64,000 bases of DNA from Candidatus Saccharimonadota bacterium. GTDB lineage: Bacteria; Patescibacteriota; Saccharimonadia; Saccharimonadales; DTSZ01. Under the pieces are notes generated by a model. It did not search any database, was not told the origin of the DNA, and saw only the letters and a list, made by a program, of their open reading frames with translations. Location: the NCBI GenBank assembly GCA_012965045.1, contig DTSZ01000001.1, forward strand, positions 684,024 through 748,023, read 5' to 3'. Made by a program: the position numbers and the translations under genes. The stretch's first letter is position 1, and each line of letters starts with the position of its first letter. This document shows positions 21,211-46,835 of this stretch, piece by piece.

Positions 21211-21306
21211 TGCAGCAATGGTGTAGCGACATTAATATTCAATGCTTTATTATAGCGCCACTCCCCAGTTGCCCGTAGTTATCTTACCAGCCCTAAAACT
21301 ACCAAA

Positions 21307-21353
21307 TTCTATCTTCTATCTTCTATCTTCTATCTTCTATCTTCTATCTTCTA
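21307..21353. repeat. heptanucleotide microsatellite (tatcttc) x 6 plus partial units
   Basis: Read directly. Six perfect units at 21310-21351. The manC-like stop codon (TAG, 21353-21351 on minus) lies in the last unit. Confidence 0.95.
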
Positions 21354-23635: not shown

Positions 23636-23715
23636 TTACTTTTAGTTTACCGCAGTAAAGCTTCAAAAAATTGGCAATTATGTCATATTCTTCGCCGTCT
23701 TGATAGAATTACAGC

Positions 23716-25155
23716 ATGACAAACTCTAAAACCCGCTACGCACTTTTACTTATACTGTCGGATTTTTTAACTATCATTGCTGCTTTTGTGGTGGCTTATA
23801 TTGCCCGGGTGAGTTTGGATTCTCGTCCATTAGTAGAACAAATTACCTCTGTTGAGTACTTGCGTATCTTTTTATTACTTCTGCCATTTTGGGTGTTAAT
23901 TTTTGCCAGCCTCGGCTTGTATAACTCAAAAATTTACAGTAATCGCTTCAGCGAAGCTTGGCGTTTGCTGCTGGGTTCATTCTTGGGAATTTTATTTATT
24001 ATTGGTTACGATTTTGTATCTGACACGCCAATCTTCCCAGCTCGGCTAGTTGCCGTATATGGATTCGTGCTCGGTGCTGGGTTGCTTGTACTCGAGCGCC
24101 AAATTGTCTGGCAAATAAAAAAATGGGGTTACCGGCACGGCCGTGGACTGGACCGAGTGATGTTAATCGGTAATGCTCCAGCCACCAAAGACCTCGCCAA
24201 ATTGCTTGGCCATGCAGAAACATCTGGAGTTGATATAAAAGCCATCGTTGGTCAAAAAACTAATGTACCGCAGGGTTATAGTGGCCGGCACTTCTCTTCA
24301 CTCACCGACGCGCTGGAAGCCATTGAAACACTTAATATTACTACTGTTATCCAAACTCAGTTGTATGAGTCTGAGCATAAAAATCACGCCATACAACAAG
24401 CAGCGCTAAATAACCACGTCGAGTACAAACTTATGTTAGCCGAAGCTGACTTTTATAGTGGCGCTGTTGATGTTGAGCTTTTTCATTACTTTCCGGTCAT
24501 TGCCGTACATCCAACGCCGCTGTTGGGCTGGGGGCGGATCGTAAAGCGCGGGTTTGATACCGCTCTGGCTATTGTGCTTATTGTGCTTACGGCGCCGATA
24601 ATGCTTGCAACTGCTCTAGCCTTGGCAGTGTTCGACAATGGCCCGATCATTTTCAAGCAAAAACGGGTTACCCGCGGAGGGCGTGAATACAACGTCTATA
24701 AGTTTCGTAGTTTTTTGGCTAAATATAACGGCCGCGACAACAAAGAAACGTTCGAGGAACTTGGGCGCATGGATCTGTACGAAGAATTCGTCAAAAACCG
24801 CGGCCAGCTACCTAACGACCCGCGAGTCGGCAGCATTGGCCGCTTTATTCGCGGATGGAGCATCGATGAGCTTCCTCAGCTATTCAACGTTATAAAGGGC
24901 GACATTAGTTTGGTGGGTCCACGTACAATCAGCCGAGCAGACGCAGAGCAGTCTTTCCGTGACAAAACACCACTAATTTTAAGTGTTAAAACCGGCATTA
25001 CTGGCTTAGCACAAGTCTCTGGCCGCACCTTTATTCCAGTGGAAGAACGGGTAAAGCTTGATTTGTTCTACGTACAAAACTGGAGCTTATGGCTGGATAT
25101 TAAGATTTTATTTAAAACAATATGGGTCGTTCTCAAGCGGGAAGATGCTGTCTGA
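23716..25155 (+). CDS. polyprenyl-phosphate glycosyl-1-phosphate transferase (WbaP/EpsE-like priming sugar transferase)
   Basis: N-terminal TM bundle plus a C-terminal bacterial sugar transferase domain (PIIFKQKRVTRGG..., DELPQLFNVIKGDISLVGPR). TGATAGAAT-N6-ATG promoter-like context. Confidence 0.85.
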   Translation: MTNSKTRYALLLILSDFLTIIAAFVVAYIARVSLDSRPLVEQITSVEYLRIFLLLLPFWVLIFASLGLYNSKIYSNRFSEAWRLLLGSFLGILFIIGYDFVSDTPIFPARLVAVYGFVLGAGLLVLERQIVWQIKKWGYRHGRGLDRVMLIGNAPATKDLAKLLGHAETSGVDIKAIVGQKTNVPQGYSGRHFSSLTDALEAIETLNITTVIQTQLYESEHKNHAIQQAALNNHVEYKLMLAEADFYSGAVDVELFHYFPVIAVHPTPLLGWGRIVKRGFDTALAIVLIVLTAPIMLATALALAVFDNGPIIFKQKRVTRGGREYNVYKFRSFLAKYNGRDNKETFEELGRMDLYEEFVKNRGQLPNDPRVGSIGRFIRGWSIDELPQLFNVIKGDISLVGPRTISRADAEQSFRDKTPLILSVKTGITGLAQVSGRTFIPVEERVKLDLFYVQNWSLWLDIKILFKTIWVVLKREDAV

Positions 25156-25198
25156 CATCAATGGATGGAAGAAAGAATAAGGAAGAAAGAATATAGAT

Positions 25199-25558
25199 TT
25201 GGCAGATATAAAGAACTTTGAAGACCTGAATATATGGCAAAACGCCCAAGATTTAGCAGTTTCAGTTTATAAAGTTACACAAACGTTTCCATCATCAGAA
25301 ATCTACGGAATAACTAATCAGATTCGTCGTAGTTCCGCTTCAATTTCTGCCAACATAGCCGAGGGTTTTGGCCGAAAAACAAACAAAGATAAGTTGCATT
25401 TTTATGTCGTTGCCTATGGATCGCTCCTGGAGACCAAGAATTTTGTGTACTTAGCGAAAAAACTCAACTTCATAAACGAAGAGTCAGTTACAGATCTTCT
25501 TGATACTATATTAGTGTTGCAGAAACAAATGAATGTATTTATGAGACCACTAAAATGA
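25199..25558 (+). CDS. four-helix-bundle protein (23S rRNA intervening-sequence protein / Avd-like family)
   Basis: FEDLNIWQNAQDLAVSVYKVTQTFP...IRRSSASISANIAEGFGR is the family signature. 119 aa, TTG start. Confidence 0.85.
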   Translation: MADIKNFEDLNIWQNAQDLAVSVYKVTQTFPSSEIYGITNQIRRSSASISANIAEGFGRKTNKDKLHFYVVAYGSLLETKNFVYLAKKLNFINEESVTDLLDTILVLQKQMNVFMRPLK

Positions 25559-25682
25559 CCTTATCTAGCTTTTTTTATGACGCATCGTTTCCCCTCTATC
25601 TGCTATCGTTTAGATTCCAGCTATCCGACACTCCATCTTCCATCTGCCATCTTTCATCTATCCTCTTTCATGAGGTTGACTC

Positions 25683-26771
25683 ATGAAAGTAGCGATCGTC
25701 CAAGACTGGATAAGTTCTTCTGCGAGTGGTGCCGAGCGAGTGGTGTTGGAGTTGCATAAAATATTTCCCGACGCACCAATCTACACCTCTACCTACGACC
25801 ACAAACCAGGCAGTAAATTTGAAACTGCCGATGTCCGCACCACATTCCTGCAAAGCATTCCTGGGGCAAAGTCTAAACATCAATTGTTTCCGTTGTTGCG
25901 CCGCCGAGCTTTTGGAGGTCTAGATTTAACCGACTACGATGTAGTTATTTCTTCCTCAGGTGCAGAGGCTAAAGCTGTAAAAACTCGACCAGACGCACTC
26001 CACATTTGCTATTGTCACGCTCCAACTCACTATTACTGGTCTCGCTACGAGGAATATTTAAAGCGTCGGGCTATTGGCTTTATTGATCCCTTTGCAAAAG
26101 CCTACTTACGTACAACAATTAAAGGCAGTCGCCGTTGGGATTACCTTGCCGCCCAAAACCCCGACATTATGTTGGCGAATTCTACGCACATTGCCAGAGA
26201 AATAAAAAAGTACTACGACCGTCCGTCCGAAGTAGTGTTTCCGCCCATAGACATCGAACGATTTAATTTAAGCACTGCCAAGCGCAGTGGCTTTGTAGTT
26301 GTGGGGCGACAGGTTCATTACAAACGCTTTGATCTGGCTATTACGGCTGCTAACAAAACTAACAAAAGCTTGTTAGTTGTTGGGCGTGGACCGATGCACC
26401 AACAACTCCGTGCAATCGCTGGGCCAACAGTAAAATTTATTACGGACGCGTCTGACGACGAGGTTGTCGACCGTATGAGCGGCGCCGAAGCCTTGCTGTT
26501 TCCAGGGCTTGATGACTTTGGCATCGTCCCTGTAGAGGCCATGGCTACCGGCACACCAGTTATTGCCTACAAAGGTGGTGGTGCGCTGGACTACATCAAC
26601 GCCATAACTGGAAAGTTCTTTGACAAGCAAACACCAGACTCCTTAGCAGCTGTTATGCGTAATTTTGACACAAAAAACTACAAACCTGCCGACATTCGTA
26701 AACAGTCTCGTAAATTCTCATCTGAACTGTTCCAGTCTCGCATTCTCGACATCGTCAAAAAACACCAATAA
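25683..26771 (+). CDS. GT4-family (GT-B) glycosyltransferase
   Basis: MKVAIVQDW N-terminus and C-terminal E-x7-E-type region (FPGLDDFGIVPVEAMATGTPVIA). Confidence 0.8.
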   Translation: MKVAIVQDWISSSASGAERVVLELHKIFPDAPIYTSTYDHKPGSKFETADVRTTFLQSIPGAKSKHQLFPLLRRRAFGGLDLTDYDVVISSSGAEAKAVKTRPDALHICYCHAPTHYYWSRYEEYLKRRAIGFIDPFAKAYLRTTIKGSRRWDYLAAQNPDIMLANSTHIAREIKKYYDRPSEVVFPPIDIERFNLSTAKRSGFVVVGRQVHYKRFDLAITAANKTNKSLLVVGRGPMHQQLRAIAGPTVKFITDASDDEVVDRMSGAEALLFPGLDDFGIVPVEAMATGTPVIAYKGGGALDYINAITGKFFDKQTPDSLAAVMRNFDTKNYKPADIRKQSRKFSSELFQSRILDIVKKHQ

Positions 26772-26821
26772 ATTTACCTTCTTCCTTCTTCCATCTATCT
26801 ATCTTCTGCCTATCCATCTAT

Positions 26822-27016
26822 CTATCTACTCTTTATCTTCTCCCACGCTAATTCGTGAAAGTAATATAAAATCATTTTGGCAAAAAACTCTATTCCACCA
26901 ACCGTTAAGCCGGTACTAAGTTCGCCAGTTACAATCCAAGCAATAGTAAAAGTCGTTAAGCTGGCTACTATTCGCCAGCTTATTGTTTTTTCTACGATTA
27001 TTTTTTGACTGATCAT
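26822..27016 (-). CDS. DUF2061 small membrane protein
   Basis: 64 aa. TISWRIVASLTTF...GGIEFFAKMILYYFHE matches the DUF2061 pattern. Confidence 0.65.
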   Translation of the reverse strand: MISQKIIVEKTISWRIVASLTTFTIAWIVTGELSTGLTVGGIEFFAKMILYYFHELAWEKIKSR

Positions 27017-27123
27017 TCTATCCTTTTTGTGTAATTAAATCTGGAAATTGTATTGAAATTATGCTTAAATTAAAGCACGAAATCAAAAATAAAAAATATT
27101 ATCTTAAGCGGACTAATCTACTA

Positions 27124-27669
27124 ATGAAAACTAAACTAATTTTGACCAGTGCAATTTTGGCTGTTTTACTCACCACCACATACCTCTACTATTCTGCGCG
27201 AACTGATAATAAAAACGAATCTGAGGTTACTCAAACTGATCAAACCATCGATTACTCTCCGGCAACCGACGAAGACCAAGAGCAAGCAGACCGACTTAAG
27301 CAAGAGTTGATCGAAAATTCAGATTCAGAATCGAATACAGATGAAAAAACTAACCAAACTACTAACGAACCGTCAGAAGCAAAGGACGATATTAACGTAG
27401 TACTTACGTTCATAGAAGACCGAGGAAACAAAATCGTTGCCTCGGCATTTGCCCAGACAACAAAAAATGGCCAGTGTATTTTAGAAATAAGCAACGCATC
27501 ACAAACCAGCCAATACACCGCCGACCCAATATTCAACGTTAATAAATATGACTGTCGTTTTGATTTTGAACAGCCGCAAATAAGTAACGGAATCTATAGC
27601 GCAGAGATTACTTACAAAACAAACACTTCAGAAAGCAGATCTAATTCACTCGAGTTCGAGGTTCAGTAA
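27124..27669 (+). CDS. membrane-anchored or secreted hypothetical protein
   Basis: Start moved to MKTKLILTSAILAVLL (signal/anchor). Acidic linker, then a ~90-aa Cys-containing domain. TAATG overlap with the next gene. Confidence 0.55.
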   Translation: MKTKLILTSAILAVLLTTTYLYYSARTDNKNESEVTQTDQTIDYSPATDEDQEQADRLKQELIENSDSESNTDEKTNQTTNEPSEAKDDINVVLTFIEDRGNKIVASAFAQTTKNGQCILEISNASQTSQYTADPIFNVNKYDCRFDFEQPQISNGIYSAEITYKTNTSESRSNSLEFEVQ

Positions 27670-29837
27670 TGTTTAAACCGATACTCTACACACTAGTCAT
27701 AACATTAACTTCGCTTGTATTTTACGGGCAAGTAAATGCTGTAGACCCCAGTGACTTTGAGGCAGGGCGCATAATTGACGACGCAGTTTTTACCGACAAA
27801 ACCGCCATGAACGTAAATGAAATCCAAGCTTTCTTAGACGCAAAAATGCCAAATTGTGATGTTAACGGAACTGGAACATCACCTTGGTATGCACCCGATT
27901 ATGATGGCGACGGAAAACAAGAACGCTGGGAATATGGTCAGTATAAAGGCAACCCTACACCGTTCACCTGCCTAAAAGATTATGTCGAAAATCCAACGAC
28001 ACAAGTAAATAATTACGGTGGCGGTTCAGTTTCTGGCGGCAAAACAGCTGCAGAGATTATTTGGCAAGCTGCACAAGACCATGACATAAATCCACAGGTG
28101 CTACTAGTAACCTTGCAAAAAGAAAGTTCCTTGGTCACAGATGCATGGCCGTTTGAGCGCCAGTTCGACCGTGCCATGGGGTACGCGTGTCCGGACTCTG
28201 GCCCTAATAACTCCGCTAACTGCGACGAGAGCCACTATGGCTTTGCGAATCAAATAAATAAAGCTGCTTGGCAATTTAGACGCTACCTAACCTACCCGGA
28301 CAATTACAATTTTGCAGTTGGTAATCGCTACATCCAGTACAACCCTAGCGCGTCCTGTGGCGGCTCGACTGTAAACATTCAAACAGCAGTCACAGCGGCT
28401 CTATATAATTACACTCCTTACCAGCCAAACCAAGCAGCCTTAAACAACTACCCTGGGACCGCTTCGTGTGGAGCCTATGGGAACAGAAATTTTTGGTTTA
28501 CTTTCAATGAGTGGTTTGGCGGAACTAGACTTGATGACTATTCACTGACTGAAGTAAACATTACTCCGACCGTAGATATAGTTGAGGGAGGAGAAAGGGC
28601 TTTTGCAGTCAGGCTTAAAAATACAGGTGCATTCACTTTACACGAAGCTGGAACTAATGGCAGCGACGAGGTAAGGATTGTCACTAGCCCACTTGGGAGG
28701 AATAGTACTGTCTCAGGTAGCTATGAGTCAAAAACAAAGGCAACTTCAGTATTGCATTCAGTTTATGAGAGTGACGGGGTTACACTCTCTGAAGATCAAA
28801 ACACTATTGAAACAAACGAAATAGGGCGATTTGTAGTTAGAATATCAATACCCGAGGACTTTGAACCTGGTGCTTTCACAGAAATCTTAGCCGCTAGACT
28901 CGATAACCGCATGAATATATCGGATCCATTTGAATTTAATATTAACATTCTAGAAAAAAAATATTCCGCGTCCTTCGGTGGTAGTAGTTTAAATCTGTCC
29001 GGCAAACCCGGCGAAACAGTCGCTGCTGCAGTACGATATAAAAACACTGGAAATACTACATGGTATGACTTCACATCACGTCCAGACAGCTCAACTCGTC
29101 CGTTTGTTTTAGCAACTGCTAAACCAACAAATAGGATAAGCCCCTTCAATGACAGCTTTGATGGCAGAGCAAGACCCTCATTAACTATTGACCAGGTATT
29201 TGAAGCAGACGGAATTACGCTGTCGCCAACTCAAAACGTAGTGAAGCCTGGTCAAATTGCAAGATTTAGATTCATCTTGAATATTCCCGAAAACATAAAA
29301 CCTGGCATTTACGATGAGTGGGTTAAGCCATTATTTGAAGGAGCTAAATTTGAATTTAGTACCCCCAGCAACAGAATACGTATAAATGTACAAGAAAGCA
29401 CCTACGCATATATCGAAGTTGCGCACACTCCTAGCGTAGAGTTAACGTCCGGCGAAACAGTCGCTGCTGCAGTACGATATAAAAACACTGGAAATACTAC
29501 ATGGTATGACTTCACATCACGTCCAGACAGCTCAACTCGTCCGTTTGTTTTAGCAACTGCTAAACCAACAAATAGGATAAGCCCCTTCAATGACAGCTTT
29601 GATGGCAGAGCAAGACCCTCATTAACTATTGACCAGGTATTTGAAGCAGACGGAATTACGCTGTCGCCAACTCAAAACGTAGTGAAGCCTGGTCAAATTG
29701 CAAGATTTAGATTTTTAATCACAGCACCTTCTGATATTAATCAAGGCACTTATTTTGAGTATTTTAGGCCACTTTTCGAGGGCGCAAATTTTGCTTACCC
29801 ATACACCGATTTTAATCTCCGAATCAACATAGAGTAA
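27669..29837 (+). CDS. secreted multidomain protein: N-terminal possible cell-wall glycosidase-like domain plus three ~147-aa Ig-like (NBR1-like?) modules
   Basis: Signal peptide. N-domain with LLVTLQKESSLV and conserved Cys. Three tandem modules, each containing xxKNTG...; modules 2 and 3 share an identical 88-aa core. Confidence 0.75.
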   Translation: MFKPILYTLVITLTSLVFYGQVNAVDPSDFEAGRIIDDAVFTDKTAMNVNEIQAFLDAKMPNCDVNGTGTSPWYAPDYDGDGKQERWEYGQYKGNPTPFTCLKDYVENPTTQVNNYGGGSVSGGKTAAEIIWQAAQDHDINPQVLLVTLQKESSLVTDAWPFERQFDRAMGYACPDSGPNNSANCDESHYGFANQINKAAWQFRRYLTYPDNYNFAVGNRYIQYNPSASCGGSTVNIQTAVTAALYNYTPYQPNQAALNNYPGTASCGAYGNRNFWFTFNEWFGGTRLDDYSLTEVNITPTVDIVEGGERAFAVRLKNTGAFTLHEAGTNGSDEVRIVTSPLGRNSTVSGSYESKTKATSVLHSVYESDGVTLSEDQNTIETNEIGRFVVRISIPEDFEPGAFTEILAARLDNRMNISDPFEFNINILEKKYSASFGGSSLNLSGKPGETVAAAVRYKNTGNTTWYDFTSRPDSSTRPFVLATAKPTNRISPFNDSFDGRARPSLTIDQVFEADGITLSPTQNVVKPGQIARFRFILNIPENIKPGIYDEWVKPLFEGAKFEFSTPSNRIRINVQESTYAYIEVAHTPSVELTSGETVAAAVRYKNTGNTTWYDFTSRPDSSTRPFVLATAKPTNRISPFNDSFDGRARPSLTIDQVFEADGITLSPTQNVVKPGQIARFRFLITAPSDINQGTYFEYFRPLFEGANFAYPYTDFNLRINIE
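29008..29713 (+). repeat. perfect 265-bp direct duplication (29008-29272 and 29449-29713), in frame inside the 722-aa gene
   Basis: Base-by-base reading shows the two copies are identical. The offset is 441 bp, which is 147 codons. Confidence 0.95.
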
Positions 29838-38336: not shown

Positions 38337-38460
38337 GTATTTGGTAAGTGGTGGCTGGTAGATAGACGACAGAAGATGGAAGAAAGATGATGGACGGCAG
38401 AAGTTAGACCATGGAAGATAGAAGATAGAAGTTGGGAGATTATTTAAAAATACCAAATAC
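38337..38460. repeat. inverted-repeat-bounded purine-rich low-complexity element
   Basis: Perfect 10-bp inverted repeat GTATTTGGTA (38337-38346) / TACCAAATAC (38451-38460) enclosing ~104 nt of A/G-rich sequence. That sequence contains GATGGAAGA (38375-38383) and GGAAGATAGAAGATAGAAG. Confidence 0.85.
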
Positions 38461-38521
38461 GATATGCGATATGCGACATACGATTTATTTATATAACTAC
38501 ACATTTGATATAATATAGACA

Positions 38522-38968
38522 ATGAAAAATTTCCTCACACAAAATTTTACTGGTAAAAAAGGCTTGCTTGTAATTGGTGTGGCCTTTTTAGTTATAATTC
38601 TAGGCTTGGTTGTGTTGATGCACGTTAATCAGGCTCGGACCGAGAGTAGACTTGTGAGCGAAGTTGACGCCATCATTAAAGATGCTGGCTTAGAACCCGT
38701 TGAAAATTATTCTACTGATGGAAACTCAAGTTGCATGGATGTTTGTTTTAGTGTGAAGAAAACACTAGAGGCAGAAGATGACAGTAGTTTTGATGCAATT
38801 ATCAATCGGCTAGAACTTTCTGGCAGAGAAATTGATAGTGAAAATTCACAAAATACTAATTTCTATGGTGTTTCAGCCGATGGGTGTAATGGCAGTATAG
38901 GGGTCAAAGAAAGATACAACACATACTTAATAAGCTGTAGTCTTGATCGGGCATATTGGGGTCTGTAA
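38522..38968 (+). CDS. membrane-anchored hypothetical protein
   Basis: 148 aa with an N-terminal TM (LLVIGVAFLVIILGLVVLM). Preceded by TGATATAAT-N7-ATG. Immediately upstream of the cutinase-domain gene. Confidence 0.55.
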   Translation: MKNFLTQNFTGKKGLLVIGVAFLVIILGLVVLMHVNQARTESRLVSEVDAIIKDAGLEPVENYSTDGNSSCMDVCFSVKKTLEAEDDSSFDAIINRLELSGREIDSENSQNTNFYGVSADGCNGSIGVKERYNTYLISCSLDRAYWGL

Positions 38969-43482: not shown

Positions 43483-43633
43483 GGCTTAACGACAAAATCG
43501 TTAGAAGATGGGAGATGGAAGATAGTAGATGGGATTAGTTTCATATAAATAAAAGTATAGAGCAAAAAGACTACACAACGAGATGCTTGTTATAAAAACA
43601 CTCTTGCGTTGTACCTTTTACTTTCACCCTTAC

Positions 43634-45734: not shown

Positions 45735-46835
45735 ATGAAGGTAGAAGTTACCCAAGCAAATTTAAATAAAGCACTATCGATAGTCGGCCGTGTTGCTGGT
45801 GGTAGGACTTCTCTTCCAATCTTATCGAATGTACTGTTGTCGGTTGAAGATAATCAGCTTAAATTAGCTGCCACAAACTTAGAAGTAGCAATTACGCAGC
45901 ATATTGGCGCAAAAGTAAGTGAACCTGGCTCTATTACGGTTCCAGCTCGGTTAATGTCAGATTTTATCAACAGCCTACCAGACAGCAATATTCAACTAAG
46001 CGTAGAAGAAAACAAACTTAGCATTAAGGCCAAGGGTTACTCATCAACAATTAACGGTGTTTCGTCAGAAGAGTTCCCTTCTATTCCAATAGTTTCTGCA
46101 AAAAACCCACTTGTTATAACTGGTAAAAACCTCAAAGGCGTTATTGCTCAGACCATTGTTGCTGCATCAAGCGACGAGGCCCGACCAGTTCTAACTGGTG
46201 TATTTACCTATGTTCATGAAGGCTCACTACTGGCTGTTGCCACGGACAGTTACCGATTAGCTGAGAAAGTGATTCAAGTAAAAACCAATCTTAACGAACT
46301 GTCGGTAATCGTGCCGGCCAAAACCTTTGCAGAAATTCAACGAATTGTGTCCGACGAGGACTCAGTACAACTGCATTTTGACGATGTGCAAATGTTGGTA
46401 GAAGTTGGTGATGTGCAGATTGTTTCTAAATTAATTGACGGTAAATTCCCGGCGTATAAACAACTTATTCCAGAAAAAAGCGATGTGAGTTTTAAGATCG
46501 AACGTAAGGAACTATTAAATGCAACCAAGGTAGCAGCGCTGTTTGCCCGCGAAAGCGCCGGTAGTATTACGTTAGAAGTTTCTGAGGATGACAATTCAGT
46601 TAGTATTGCCTCGGTTGCTAGTCAAGTTGGCAATAATAACTCCACCCTATCAACCACCGTTAAAGGCTCTGGTAGTGTAACTTTAAATTCACGGTATTTG
46701 ATCGACGCCCTTAACGCCATTAACGACCAAGAACTTACATTTCGATTTAGTGGAAGCACAAACCCCTGCATTTTAGAGCCAACCGGTGAAGAAAAACAAA
46801 ACTATCTTCATGTCGTGATGCCTTTGCGTAGCTAG
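45735..46835 (+). CDS. dnaN: DNA polymerase III beta sliding clamp
   Basis: MKVEVTQANLNKAL...TNLEVAI pattern; 366 aa. Start at ATG 45735, preceded by GGGAGAA. Synteny with dnaA. Confidence 0.95.
   Translation: MKVEVTQANLNKALSIVGRVAGGRTSLPILSNVLLSVEDNQLKLAATNLEVAITQHIGAKVSEPGSITVPARLMSDFINSLPDSNIQLSVEENKLSIKAKGYSSTINGVSSEEFPSIPIVSAKNPLVITGKNLKGVIAQTIVAASSDEARPVLTGVFTYVHEGSLLAVATDSYRLAEKVIQVKTNLNELSVIVPAKTFAEIQRIVSDEDSVQLHFDDVQMLVEVGDVQIVSKLIDGKFPAYKQLIPEKSDVSFKIERKELLNATKVAALFARESAGSITLEVSEDDNSVSIASVASQVGNNNSTLSTTVKGSGSVTLNSRYLIDALNAINDQELTFRFSGSTNPCILEPTGEEKQNYLHVVMPLRS

Follow-up and report, generated by a model that had tools for sequence, protein, structure and literature searches.

A Four-Helix-Bundle Protein Gene between Loosely Complementary Heptamer-Repeat Arms in a Saccharibacteria Glycan Operon

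Introduction

Intervening sequences (IVSs) of 23S rRNA are inserted in helix 9, 25 or 45, are transcribed within the pre-rRNA and are excised by RNase III. The protein family PF05635 was first found in such excised sequences, and IVSs that bear an open reading frame (ORF) also occur in Leptospira. Here we analyze a gene of this family, encoding a four-helix-bundle (4HB) protein, which is bracketed by two repeat tracts (its 5′ and 3′ arms) between two glycan genes of Candidatus Saccharimonadota bacterium. It lies in a stretch of 64,000 nucleotides (contig DTSZ01000001.1, positions 684,024 to 748,023), which we refer to as the window and in which all positions are numbered unless another locus or accession is named. 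The arms consist of heptamers, and tandem heptamers are also known as the short tandemly repeated repetitive (STRR) arrays of Nostoc and Calothrix.

In the 23S IVS of Coxiella burnetii, an AG-rich putative Shine-Dalgarno sequence (AGAAGA) and three tandem copies of GACAGAT with a degenerate fourth are found directly before the start of the S23p gene (PMC4990558). Tract and heptamers make up one arm of the RNase III stem. The heptamer copy number varies between strains, the terminal stem is 28 bp long, and the first repeat is where RNase III cleaves; the origin of IVSs has been called unclear (PMC4990558). The Coxiella ORF is reported to be decaying and untranslated. A 2024 survey of rRNA insertions in bacteria of the candidate phyla radiation describes the 23S_rRNA_IVP ORFs as functionally uncharacterised and Saccharibacteria rRNA as largely free of large insertions (PMC11270868).

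Heptamer arrays are over-represented and mostly intergenic, and their function is unexplained (PMC4692102, PMC4679880). Examples are the GGGAATC arrays of Xanthomonas, which include 70 convergent inverted pairs, the GGGGAYT arrays of Nostoc (PMC4692102), and the TAACTGA arrays of Beggiatoaceae, cyanobacteria and Bacteroidetes, which end 1 nt ahead of start codons (PMC4679880). The terms “S23,” “four helix” and “intervening” are absent from the main texts of both papers. One of the listed arrays, repeat #15 of X. campestris ATCC 33913, is (GGGAATC)4 at 622956-622983, 6 nt after bccP (XCC0517) and overlapping the start of XCC0516 (PMC4692102 supplement). XCC0516, which goes unnamed in the main text of that paper, is the crystallised homolog of the 4HB protein of the window, and its gene provides an independent case in an isolate genome. 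In the searchable literature, the only mention of PF05635 that we found is in a review of diversity-generating retroelements (DGRs).

Results

Recurrence of the Arrangement across Phyla

The locus is most likely a local, somewhat decayed copy of a widespread element, in which a PF05635 gene is placed between two arrays of 6-8-nt tandem repeats. Upstream, directly before the start codon, is an array rich in G and purines; its reverse complement makes up the downstream array, a few nucleotides after the stop codon. This layout is the anatomy of an ORF-bearing 23S rRNA IVS, fixed inside a protein-coding operon.

A reading made from the sequence alone (the sequence-only reading) had assigned the 119 amino acid long product to the IVS-protein/Avd-like family and its site to a gap between two glycan genes. 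Both assignments hold. The protein matches PF05635 (23S_rRNA_IVP) with an E-value of 1.3e-35 and 122.3 bits (cut-off 33.8) and TIGR02436 (“four helix bundle protein”) with 115 bits (cut-off 24), exceeding both curated cut-offs, and Pfam identifies the neighbors as a Bac_transf sugar transferase and a GT4 glycosyltransferase (Table 1). By sequence similarity, the nearest solved structure is 2GSC, which is XCC0516 of Xanthomonas campestris (E-value 8e-17). The best homologs are found in Saccharibacteria/Saccharimonadales, and 29 columns are invariant in an alignment of 34 homologs.

Both arms are degenerate tandem repeats of the GAAGATR type. The 5′ arm, which spans the ribosome-binding region of the 4HB gene, had been described as composed of A and G only; it is indeed C-free and 86% purine, but with a composition of A21 G11 T5 C0 it also contains T. 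The downstream tract, described as rich in C, T and A, is pyrimidine-rich (75% over 25590-25672) but contains seven G. The 9-mer GATGGAAGA (25164-25172) and its exact complement TCTTCCATC (25636-25644) are located where the sequence-only reading placed them.

Are such arms a property of this gene family? With a profile of 34 homologs we obtained 79 loci from species-representative genomes (best 80 loci kept; top identity 61%; the source genome of the window not among them). The arm statistics cover 76 homologous loci, distributed over Patescibacteria, Bacteroidota, Acidobacteriota, Planctomycetota, Omnitrophota and Proteobacteria. In most loci, the gene follows closely on short tandem repeats and is itself closely followed by the same unit in reverse complement. 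The unit itself varies between genomes: GTAGTTG / CCAACTA, GGTAGGT / CACCTAC, GGGAGTT / AACTCCC, ATACTTG / CAAGTAT, GAGGTT / AACCTC, GTAACTA / TAGTTAC, and CGTGATT / AATCACG are examples. Since any purine tract pairs with any pyrimidine tract, a dinucleotide-shuffle test gives no signal, and it was replaced by comparisons of direct with inverted alignments, of cognate with non-cognate arms, and of 4HB genes with control genes.

The inverted alignment score has a median of 26 versus 15 for the direct score and is the higher of the two in 64 of the 76 loci. Inverted arms reach z > 3 in 55 loci (32/43 Patescibacteria, 13/19 in the Fibrobacteres-Chlorobi-Bacteroidetes (FCB) group, and 10/14 others), with a median z of 6.1. 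The two flanks share a median of four reverse-complement 7-mers, versus one for 370 control genes from the same loci (p-value = 1e-15). The arms of a gene covary: the mean score of cognate arms is 26.3 and that of non-cognate arms 14.0, with a maximum of 16.5 over 5000 permutations. Even paralogs on one contig bear different, privately matched units (L054, L074, L075, L077). Arrays with a period of 6-8 nt occur at 3.6 per kb within 150 nt of the 4HB gene ends and at 0.15 per kb elsewhere in the same loci, a 24-fold enrichment. The sequence-only reading had named a lack of recurrence of arm-flanked 4HB genes as grounds for its refutation; such genes do recur, and the comparative data support its core idea.

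The arrays are also constrained in size, position and strand. The period is 7 in 66 of 98 flanking arrays, with a median of 4.6 copies (interquartile range (IQR) 4.1-5.4) and a median length of 32 nt. As a rule, 0-8 nt separate the 5′ arm from the start codon, and approximately 3-15 nt separate the stop codon from the 3′ arm. G exceeds C on the 5′ arm in 52 of 54 loci (p-value = 2e-13), and C exceeds G on the 3′ arm in 53 of 54. This fixed polarity argues for a strand-specific, hence RNA-level, role.

Relatives of the 4HB gene reside in unrelated operons, namely those of ATP synthase (locus L080), accB/bccP (Xanthomonas) and cas (Anabaena), which implies that insertion must occur on long time scales. 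Finished isolate records, read separately from the 76 loci, agree with the survey. On plasmid pANA02 of Anabaena sp. 90 (L092, NC_019429.1 42801-46127), the 4HB gene is part of a type I-D CRISPR-Cas operon, where it is placed between cas6 and cas4, with STRR-type arrays of (ACAGGTG)n and (CACCTGT)n approximately 100 nt on either side. A Riemerella plasmid locus has its 4HB gene between AAGGTTY and RAACCTT arrays; the plasmid matches of the family are mostly from heterocystous cyanobacteria. In L080, a metagenome-assembled genome of Terriglobia, the 4HB gene has (CGTGATT)n / (TCACGAA)n arms and is located upstream of atpD.

At 5883-5984 of L080, between atpD and atpC, there is an ORF-less hairpin of the same two arrays with a 36-nt loop. 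In L006 (3001-3384), from another Saccharibacteria lineage, the homolog P0011 (61% identical) is in a paralogous arrangement with the order GtrA, 4HB, LexA-DNA-binding-domain gene, BacA, next to Wzy and Bac_transf genes; the 4HB gene as called overlaps both neighbors, which would leave scant room for arms.

Orthologs in Saccharibacteria

In 35 loci, the 4HB gene is preceded at a distance of 12-79 nt by a Bac_transf ortholog (40-47% identical), and in 35 Saccharibacteria-type loci it is followed by a GT4 ortholog. Both arms are recognisably homologous as well. Upstream, the orthologs read ..AATGGAAGATGGCTATTAGAAT|ATG and the window reads AATGGATGGAAGAAAG..AATATAGAT|TTG; downstream, the orthologs have GCCATCTTCCATTAGCCATCTTCC and the window has CCATCTTCCATCTGCCATCTTTC. 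The window copy is an ortholog that has come down vertically in Saccharibacteria and does not stem from a recent insertion. The sequence-only reading had suggested a self-contained, possibly mobile cassette. This suggestion is contradicted by the same Bac_transf, 4HB, GT4 slot in 35 genomes with flanks at such moderate identity and homologous arms, by a 3′ arm that is translated sequence instead of free spacer, and by an arm sequence that is not private to the cassette within the genome.

The evidence for translation of the 3′ arm comes from the reading frames. In 34 of the 35 orthologs, the GT4 frame is open back through the 3′ arm, with a start codon at -13 to +3 relative to the 4HB stop codon. 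This upstream in-frame start is ATG in 30 loci and forms an ATGA overlap with the 4HB stop in 14, while the same arrangement appears in the other two frames in only 1/35 and 0/35 loci. The open frame implies that the arm encodes approximately the first 15 residues of GT4 in most species and that its translation is coupled to that of the 4HB gene. The spacer of the window has been stretched to 124 nt by an insertion, and a bridging ORF replaces the GT4 fusion: its start codon and the 4HB stop codon overlap in ATGA at 25555-25558, and its own stop codon, TGA, overlaps with the ATG of GT4 in ATGA at 25683-25686. The nearest relative, L093 (protein 73% identical), shares this geometry: a 36-codon ORF extends from ATGA to TTGA and encodes an unrelated peptide, which suggests that the act of translation is conserved and not the peptide.

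The GT4 start codon of the window is enclosed in a hairpin (-16.3 kcal/mol, z = -6.6), the 3′ half of which is the GT4 start region with codons K-V-A-I. Most orthologs have a hairpin at the equivalent place with different stems; when each sequence is folded separately, z is below -2 in 16 of 35. Stems at the orthologous positions in L010-L051 include AUAGCAACC/GGUUGCUAU, AUCGCC/GGCGAU, AUCACCA/UGGUGAU, and CUUUCAUGAG/CUCAUGAAAG. RNAalifold gave no structure, the stems not being column-aligned, and the hairpins were therefore folded sequence by sequence.

In-frame heptamer arrays are also present inside the GT4 coding sequence of other Saccharibacteria, L011 (4704-4733 and 5016-5045) and L022 (4710-4742 and 5024-5056), which they invade as short peptide insertions. 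Like the 3′ arm, they are of pyrimidine-type orientation, and in L022 the unit is the same as well.

Related Arrays and Neighboring Genes

The heptamer family of the arms recurs within the window. Tandem Repeats Finder (TRF) reports arrays at 21307-21353, 25632-25671, 38360-38431 and 43506-43534, and a motif scan adds 25160-25197 and 26775-26850. As in STRR-like arrays, tandem 7-nt units in at least three copies are dispersed at intergenic sites; the solo arrays do not share one orientation relative to transcription. In the 21.3-kb array there are 6.7 units, compared with 3.7 in two Joint Genome Institute (JGI) metagenome contigs of the same lineage (L004/L005). This whole-unit polymorphism, a 21-nt indel of exactly three heptamers, is the only indel in 20 kb, the other differences being just three N positions, and it indicates that the arrays are live microsatellites. 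The array at 43506-43534 is located between putative rpmH and rnpA genes, approximately 20 nt upstream of the rnpA start and near a putative dnaA origin region; these two gene identities come from sequence and gene order, with no family scan. A further repeat, CGATATG x3.6 at 38460-38484, is close to the 38360-38431 array.

No 4HB gene remnants were found beside the solo arrays, and there is no second copy of the 4HB cassette within the window. The sole 4HB-like match (46431-46739) is weak (E-value 0.012) and inside another gene, and was not taken as a remnant.

Table 1. Features of the 4HB locus and related heptamer arrays in the window
Feature	Position	Strand	Remark
Priming sugar transferase (Bac_transf + CoA_binding_3), upstream operon gene	23716..25155	+	Pfam E 2.5e-56
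5′ arm, C-free 86% purine tract	25161..25197	+	GGAAGAAAGAATA twice; ends 1 nt before TTG start
4HB protein gene, 119 aa	25199..25558	+	PF05635 / TIGR02436; TTG start
43-codon bridging ORF	25555..25686	+	contains 3′ arm
3′ arm, G-poor pyrimidine-rich tract	25590..25672	+	core 25632-25671 = TCCATCT x5.7 (TRF)
Perfect 10-bp hairpin CTTTCATGAG / CTCATGAAAG, 5-nt loop	25665..25689	+	3′ half holds GT4 start codon (25683)
GT4 glycosyltransferase, downstream operon gene	25683..26771	+	Pfam
Distal pyrimidine-type array, directly after GT4 stop	26775..26850	+	alternative 5′-arm partner
Solo array, perfect (GAAGATA)n x6.7	21297..21353	-	starts at ManC-like gene stop codon
Solo purine-type array, ~10 heptamers	38360..38431	+	between glycosyltransferase-like gene and ORF 38522..38968
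Solo array AGATGGG x4.1 on plus strand	43506..43534	+	pyrimidine-type on minus-strand transcript

The sugar transferase, 4HB and GT4 genes are on the plus strand, with 43 nt before and 124 nt after the 4HB gene. Wzy-like, ManC-like and LexA-DNA-binding-domain genes precede the locus and more glycan genes follow it. The GC content of the 4HB gene is 36% (GC3 35%); the two flanking genes have 46-47%, and the window as a whole has 42%. A promoter-like site is present at 23680-23709, ahead of the sugar transferase, and a terminator-like site at 26957-26982. There is no promoter or terminator consensus between 25155 and 25683, which makes co-transcription across the arms plausible. Among the genes within +/-10 kb, Pfam identifies none for a transposase, a recombinase or a reverse transcriptase, and 24900-27100 has no Rfam match at E <= 1. 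The window sequence is identical within a hydrothermal-vent metagenome scaffold (929,678 bp; ENA ERZ23486381), and in five independent assemblies the sequence is the same and both arms are invariant, the exception being the microsatellite elsewhere.

The glycan cluster is preceded, at a distance of 7 kb, by a heliorhodopsin gene (PF18761; 17462-18232, minus strand). Within a 722-aa ORF (27669..29837) that has no Pfam match, a protein module is duplicated by a perfect 265-bp direct repeat (29008-29272 / 29449-29713).

Discussion

What could the arms do? The explanation we consider most likely, with moderate confidence, is that they form a stem in the operon mRNA through which translation or processing is controlled. 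The arms would pair into an imperfect stem of approximately 30 bp that loops out the 4HB ORF and masks the ribosome-binding region of the 4HB gene together with the initial codons of the next cistron, so that GT4 output would depend on ribosomes opening the stem. The stem and the start-codon hairpin may be opened by ribosomes, either those loading on the 5′ arm while the 3′ arm is yet to be transcribed or those continuing through the 4HB stop region, and translation would then be handed on to GT4; a stem once formed would shut both genes. By analogy with the rRNA IVSs, the stem is probably also an RNase III substrate. We infer the formation of the stem in vivo, and its role, from the recurrence, covariation and polarity of the arms, from the synteny, and from the way in which stop codon, start codon and hairpin are placed at the junction with GT4.

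A number of results weigh against this explanation. About a quarter of the homologous loci have no significant arms. The mismatches between arms show no excess of G.U wobbles on the sense strand (37 sense-compatible, 76 antisense-compatible); the 5′ arm is enriched in A, a confounding factor that makes this asymmetry unusable for choosing the RNA strand. In the window, the arms pair no better than their composition leads one to expect by chance: their duplex has an energy of -23.5 kcal/mol versus -23.2 +/- 2.9 for dinucleotide shuffles, the inverted local alignment score is 18 versus 16.2 +/- 2.1, and the fold of the whole 541 nt has a z of -0.86, a value uninformative as a structure test. The 5′ arm forms better duplexes with the tracts at 38.3 kb (-33.7), 21.3 kb (-31.2) and 26.7 kb (-26.0), and in a transcript of 24700-27000 it is predicted to prefer the distal tract 26775-26850 (P = 0.60). 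Four of the six GAAGATR-family arrays in the 64 kb have no 4HB gene. The RNase III signature motif is absent from the 64-kb window. An RNase III cut in the orthologs would take away the GT4 start codon, so that processing would inactivate GT4 and not mature it.

The loose complementarity noted around the 9-mer, and the expectation that the arms pair when folded, must be seen against these figures. The best extended inverted repeat between the arms covers 26 nt at 73%. The arms do pair in the minimum-free-energy and centroid structures, the outer stem surviving in the centroid, and in the predicted ensemble: for transcripts ending before 26.0 kb, 65% of the 5′-arm nucleotides are paired with the 3′ arm, and P is 0.58-0.97 for the 9-mer helix. 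Still, the arm pairing is no better than that of composition-matched shuffles. The original observation is real but statistically weak in the window, and to that extent partly confirmed; the layout as such is a real feature of the gene family, as its recurrence shows.

It is also conceivable, though we consider it unlikely, that the tracts are two of many heptamer microsatellites generated by slippage, of the kind of the cyanobacterial STRR, Xanthomonas GGGAATC or Beggiatoa TAACTGA arrays, that their opposite orientation is accidental, and that any role they have, whether as ribosome-binding-site enhancer, spacer or coding filler, is independent of pairing. The repetition of one unit family in the window, mostly without a 4HB gene, fits such an origin, as do the three-unit difference between metagenomes, the shuffle-like pairing of the window arms and the in-frame arrays inside the GT4 genes of orthologs; heptamer arrays directly upstream of start codons without a partner have been published, too (PMC4679880). 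Accidental placement does not account for the non-random orientation of the arrays, the specificity of each 5′ arm for its own 3′ arm, their concentration at the ends of 4HB genes, or the different private units of paralogs in one genome. The fixed polarity and private matching of the arms weigh against this explanation and against a mobile cassette.

Somewhat less likely again, the arrays might be RNA or DNA binding sites of the 4HB protein, which would regulate its own gene through both sides, with solo arrays as further targets. The narrow range of array sizes is near the pentamer stoichiometry reported for XCC0516, the closest solved homolog being a homopentameric ring (2GSC; pentamer as cited in PMC4990558); moreover, the same unit recurs at other operon junctions of this genome, and L080 has an ORF-less pair of its unit in the same operon. 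The different units on paralogs speak against this possibility, as each protein would need a specificity of its own. A repeated single-stranded RNA site has no need of complementary arms, and a fixed G-rich/C-rich polarity is unexpected for binding to double-stranded DNA. Nucleic-acid binding by members outside the DGRs is undocumented in the literature that we found.

We regard as very improbable a mobile or invertible cassette acting at the DNA level, in which the arms are terminal inverted repeats served by a transposase or recombinase in trans and the unit was inserted between the glycan genes. The inverted flanking repeats, the GC content of the 4HB gene, approximately 10 points under that of its neighbors, and the relatives inside unrelated operons (ATP synthase in L080; cas6-cas4 in Anabaena L092) would suit it. 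Against this stand a position kept in 35 genomes whose flanking proteins are just 40-47% identical, arms that are homologous among orthologs, an orientation that is always the same, a single copy without remnant in the window, and five independent assemblies that are identical except for the microsatellite elsewhere. There is no transposase or recombinase within +/-10 kb, and no target-site duplication or direct repeat is visible at the arm ends. A classification as transposon or miniature inverted-repeat transposable element, which would call for near-identical copies, a target-site duplication and variable presence, was rejected, there being one copy and synteny in 35 genomes. Finally, that the gene is the Avd accessory protein of a DGR is hardly credible: PF05635 includes Avd and some homologs have a faint bAvd (PF22296) match, but no reverse transcriptase (RVT family) is found within +/-10 kb, no search for template and variable repeats having been made, and the neighborhood is a conserved glycan operon.

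A larger frame is offered here tentatively and as a possibility only. The 4HB genes with privately matched, fast-evolving repeat arms may form one phylum-spanning class of operon-embedded RNA element, of which rRNA IVSs would be the special case that landed in rRNA; ORF-less stems and solo arrays of this class might explain a substantial part of the heptamer arrays (STRR, GGGAATC, TAACTGA); and in Saccharibacteria the element may have been domesticated as a translational gate on an envelope glycosyltransferase. We found no literature linking a PF05635/S23 protein with flanking repeat arrays outside rRNA; the coverage was incomplete and a prior description is possible. The family-wide tie of 4HB genes to covarying tandem-repeat arms outside rRNA appears to be undescribed in the literature so searched. 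Three puzzles are decades old: the role of the IVS ORFs, the over-representation of heptamers, and the function of the abundant 4HB proteins outside DGRs. The comparative result ties the three together. Gene and repeat arms travel as a unit across phyla and are found at the junctions of glycan, ATP synthase, acetyl-CoA carboxylase and CRISPR-Cas operons. In Saccharibacteria they suggest that a conserved envelope-glycan operon has a control point so far unrecognised.

Comparison with Known Systems

The nearest described system is the Coxiella IVS. It shares with the window element the protein family, terminal arms (loosely complementary in the window) that enclose an ORF, and an AG-rich tract with heptamers that abuts the start codon, GACAGAT in Coxiella versus GGCAGAT/GGAAGAT-type units in the window, where the tract runs to 1 nt before the start. 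Heptamer copy number is variable in both, among Coxiella strains and here at the 21.3-kb array. The terminal stem is less clear in the window, where the arms pair in predictions but equal shuffles, than in the 55 of 76 homologous loci with significant arms. Unlike a 23S IVS, the window element is located between protein genes of one operon, has no Rfam match, and has a 3′ arm that is translated and chained to the next gene. Its 4HB protein is well conserved, in contrast to the Coxiella ORF. We do not file the element as an rRNA IVS because it fails one defining feature, location; from its sequence it would appear to work like an IVS, and it belongs to the same protein family. The term “IVS-like cassette” of the sequence-only reading is therefore apt for architecture and kinship and inappropriate for self-containment and recent mobility, and the interpretation as a whole is partly supported.

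DGR Avd proteins, which have been reported to be pentameric, are of the same Pfam superfamily and have the same four-helix-bundle fold. They differ from the window gene in context: its surroundings are a glycan operon, and no reverse transcriptase gene is present within 10 kb (no search aimed at template and variable repeats was made).

With the STRR, GGGAATC and TAACTGA arrays, the arms have in common the tandem 7-nt units, the mostly intergenic position and the frequent ending 1 nt before a start codon. They are unlike them in that 4HB genes vary in their unit, while the two arms of any one gene match. The predicted stem over a ribosome-binding site, the ATGA overlaps and the hairpin over the next start codon resemble the stems of translational coupling or occlusion and the RNase III sites of polycistronic messages. 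In contrast to such coupling stems, the arms are fast-evolving tandem repeats, and the segment that would be looped out between them is a whole conserved gene.

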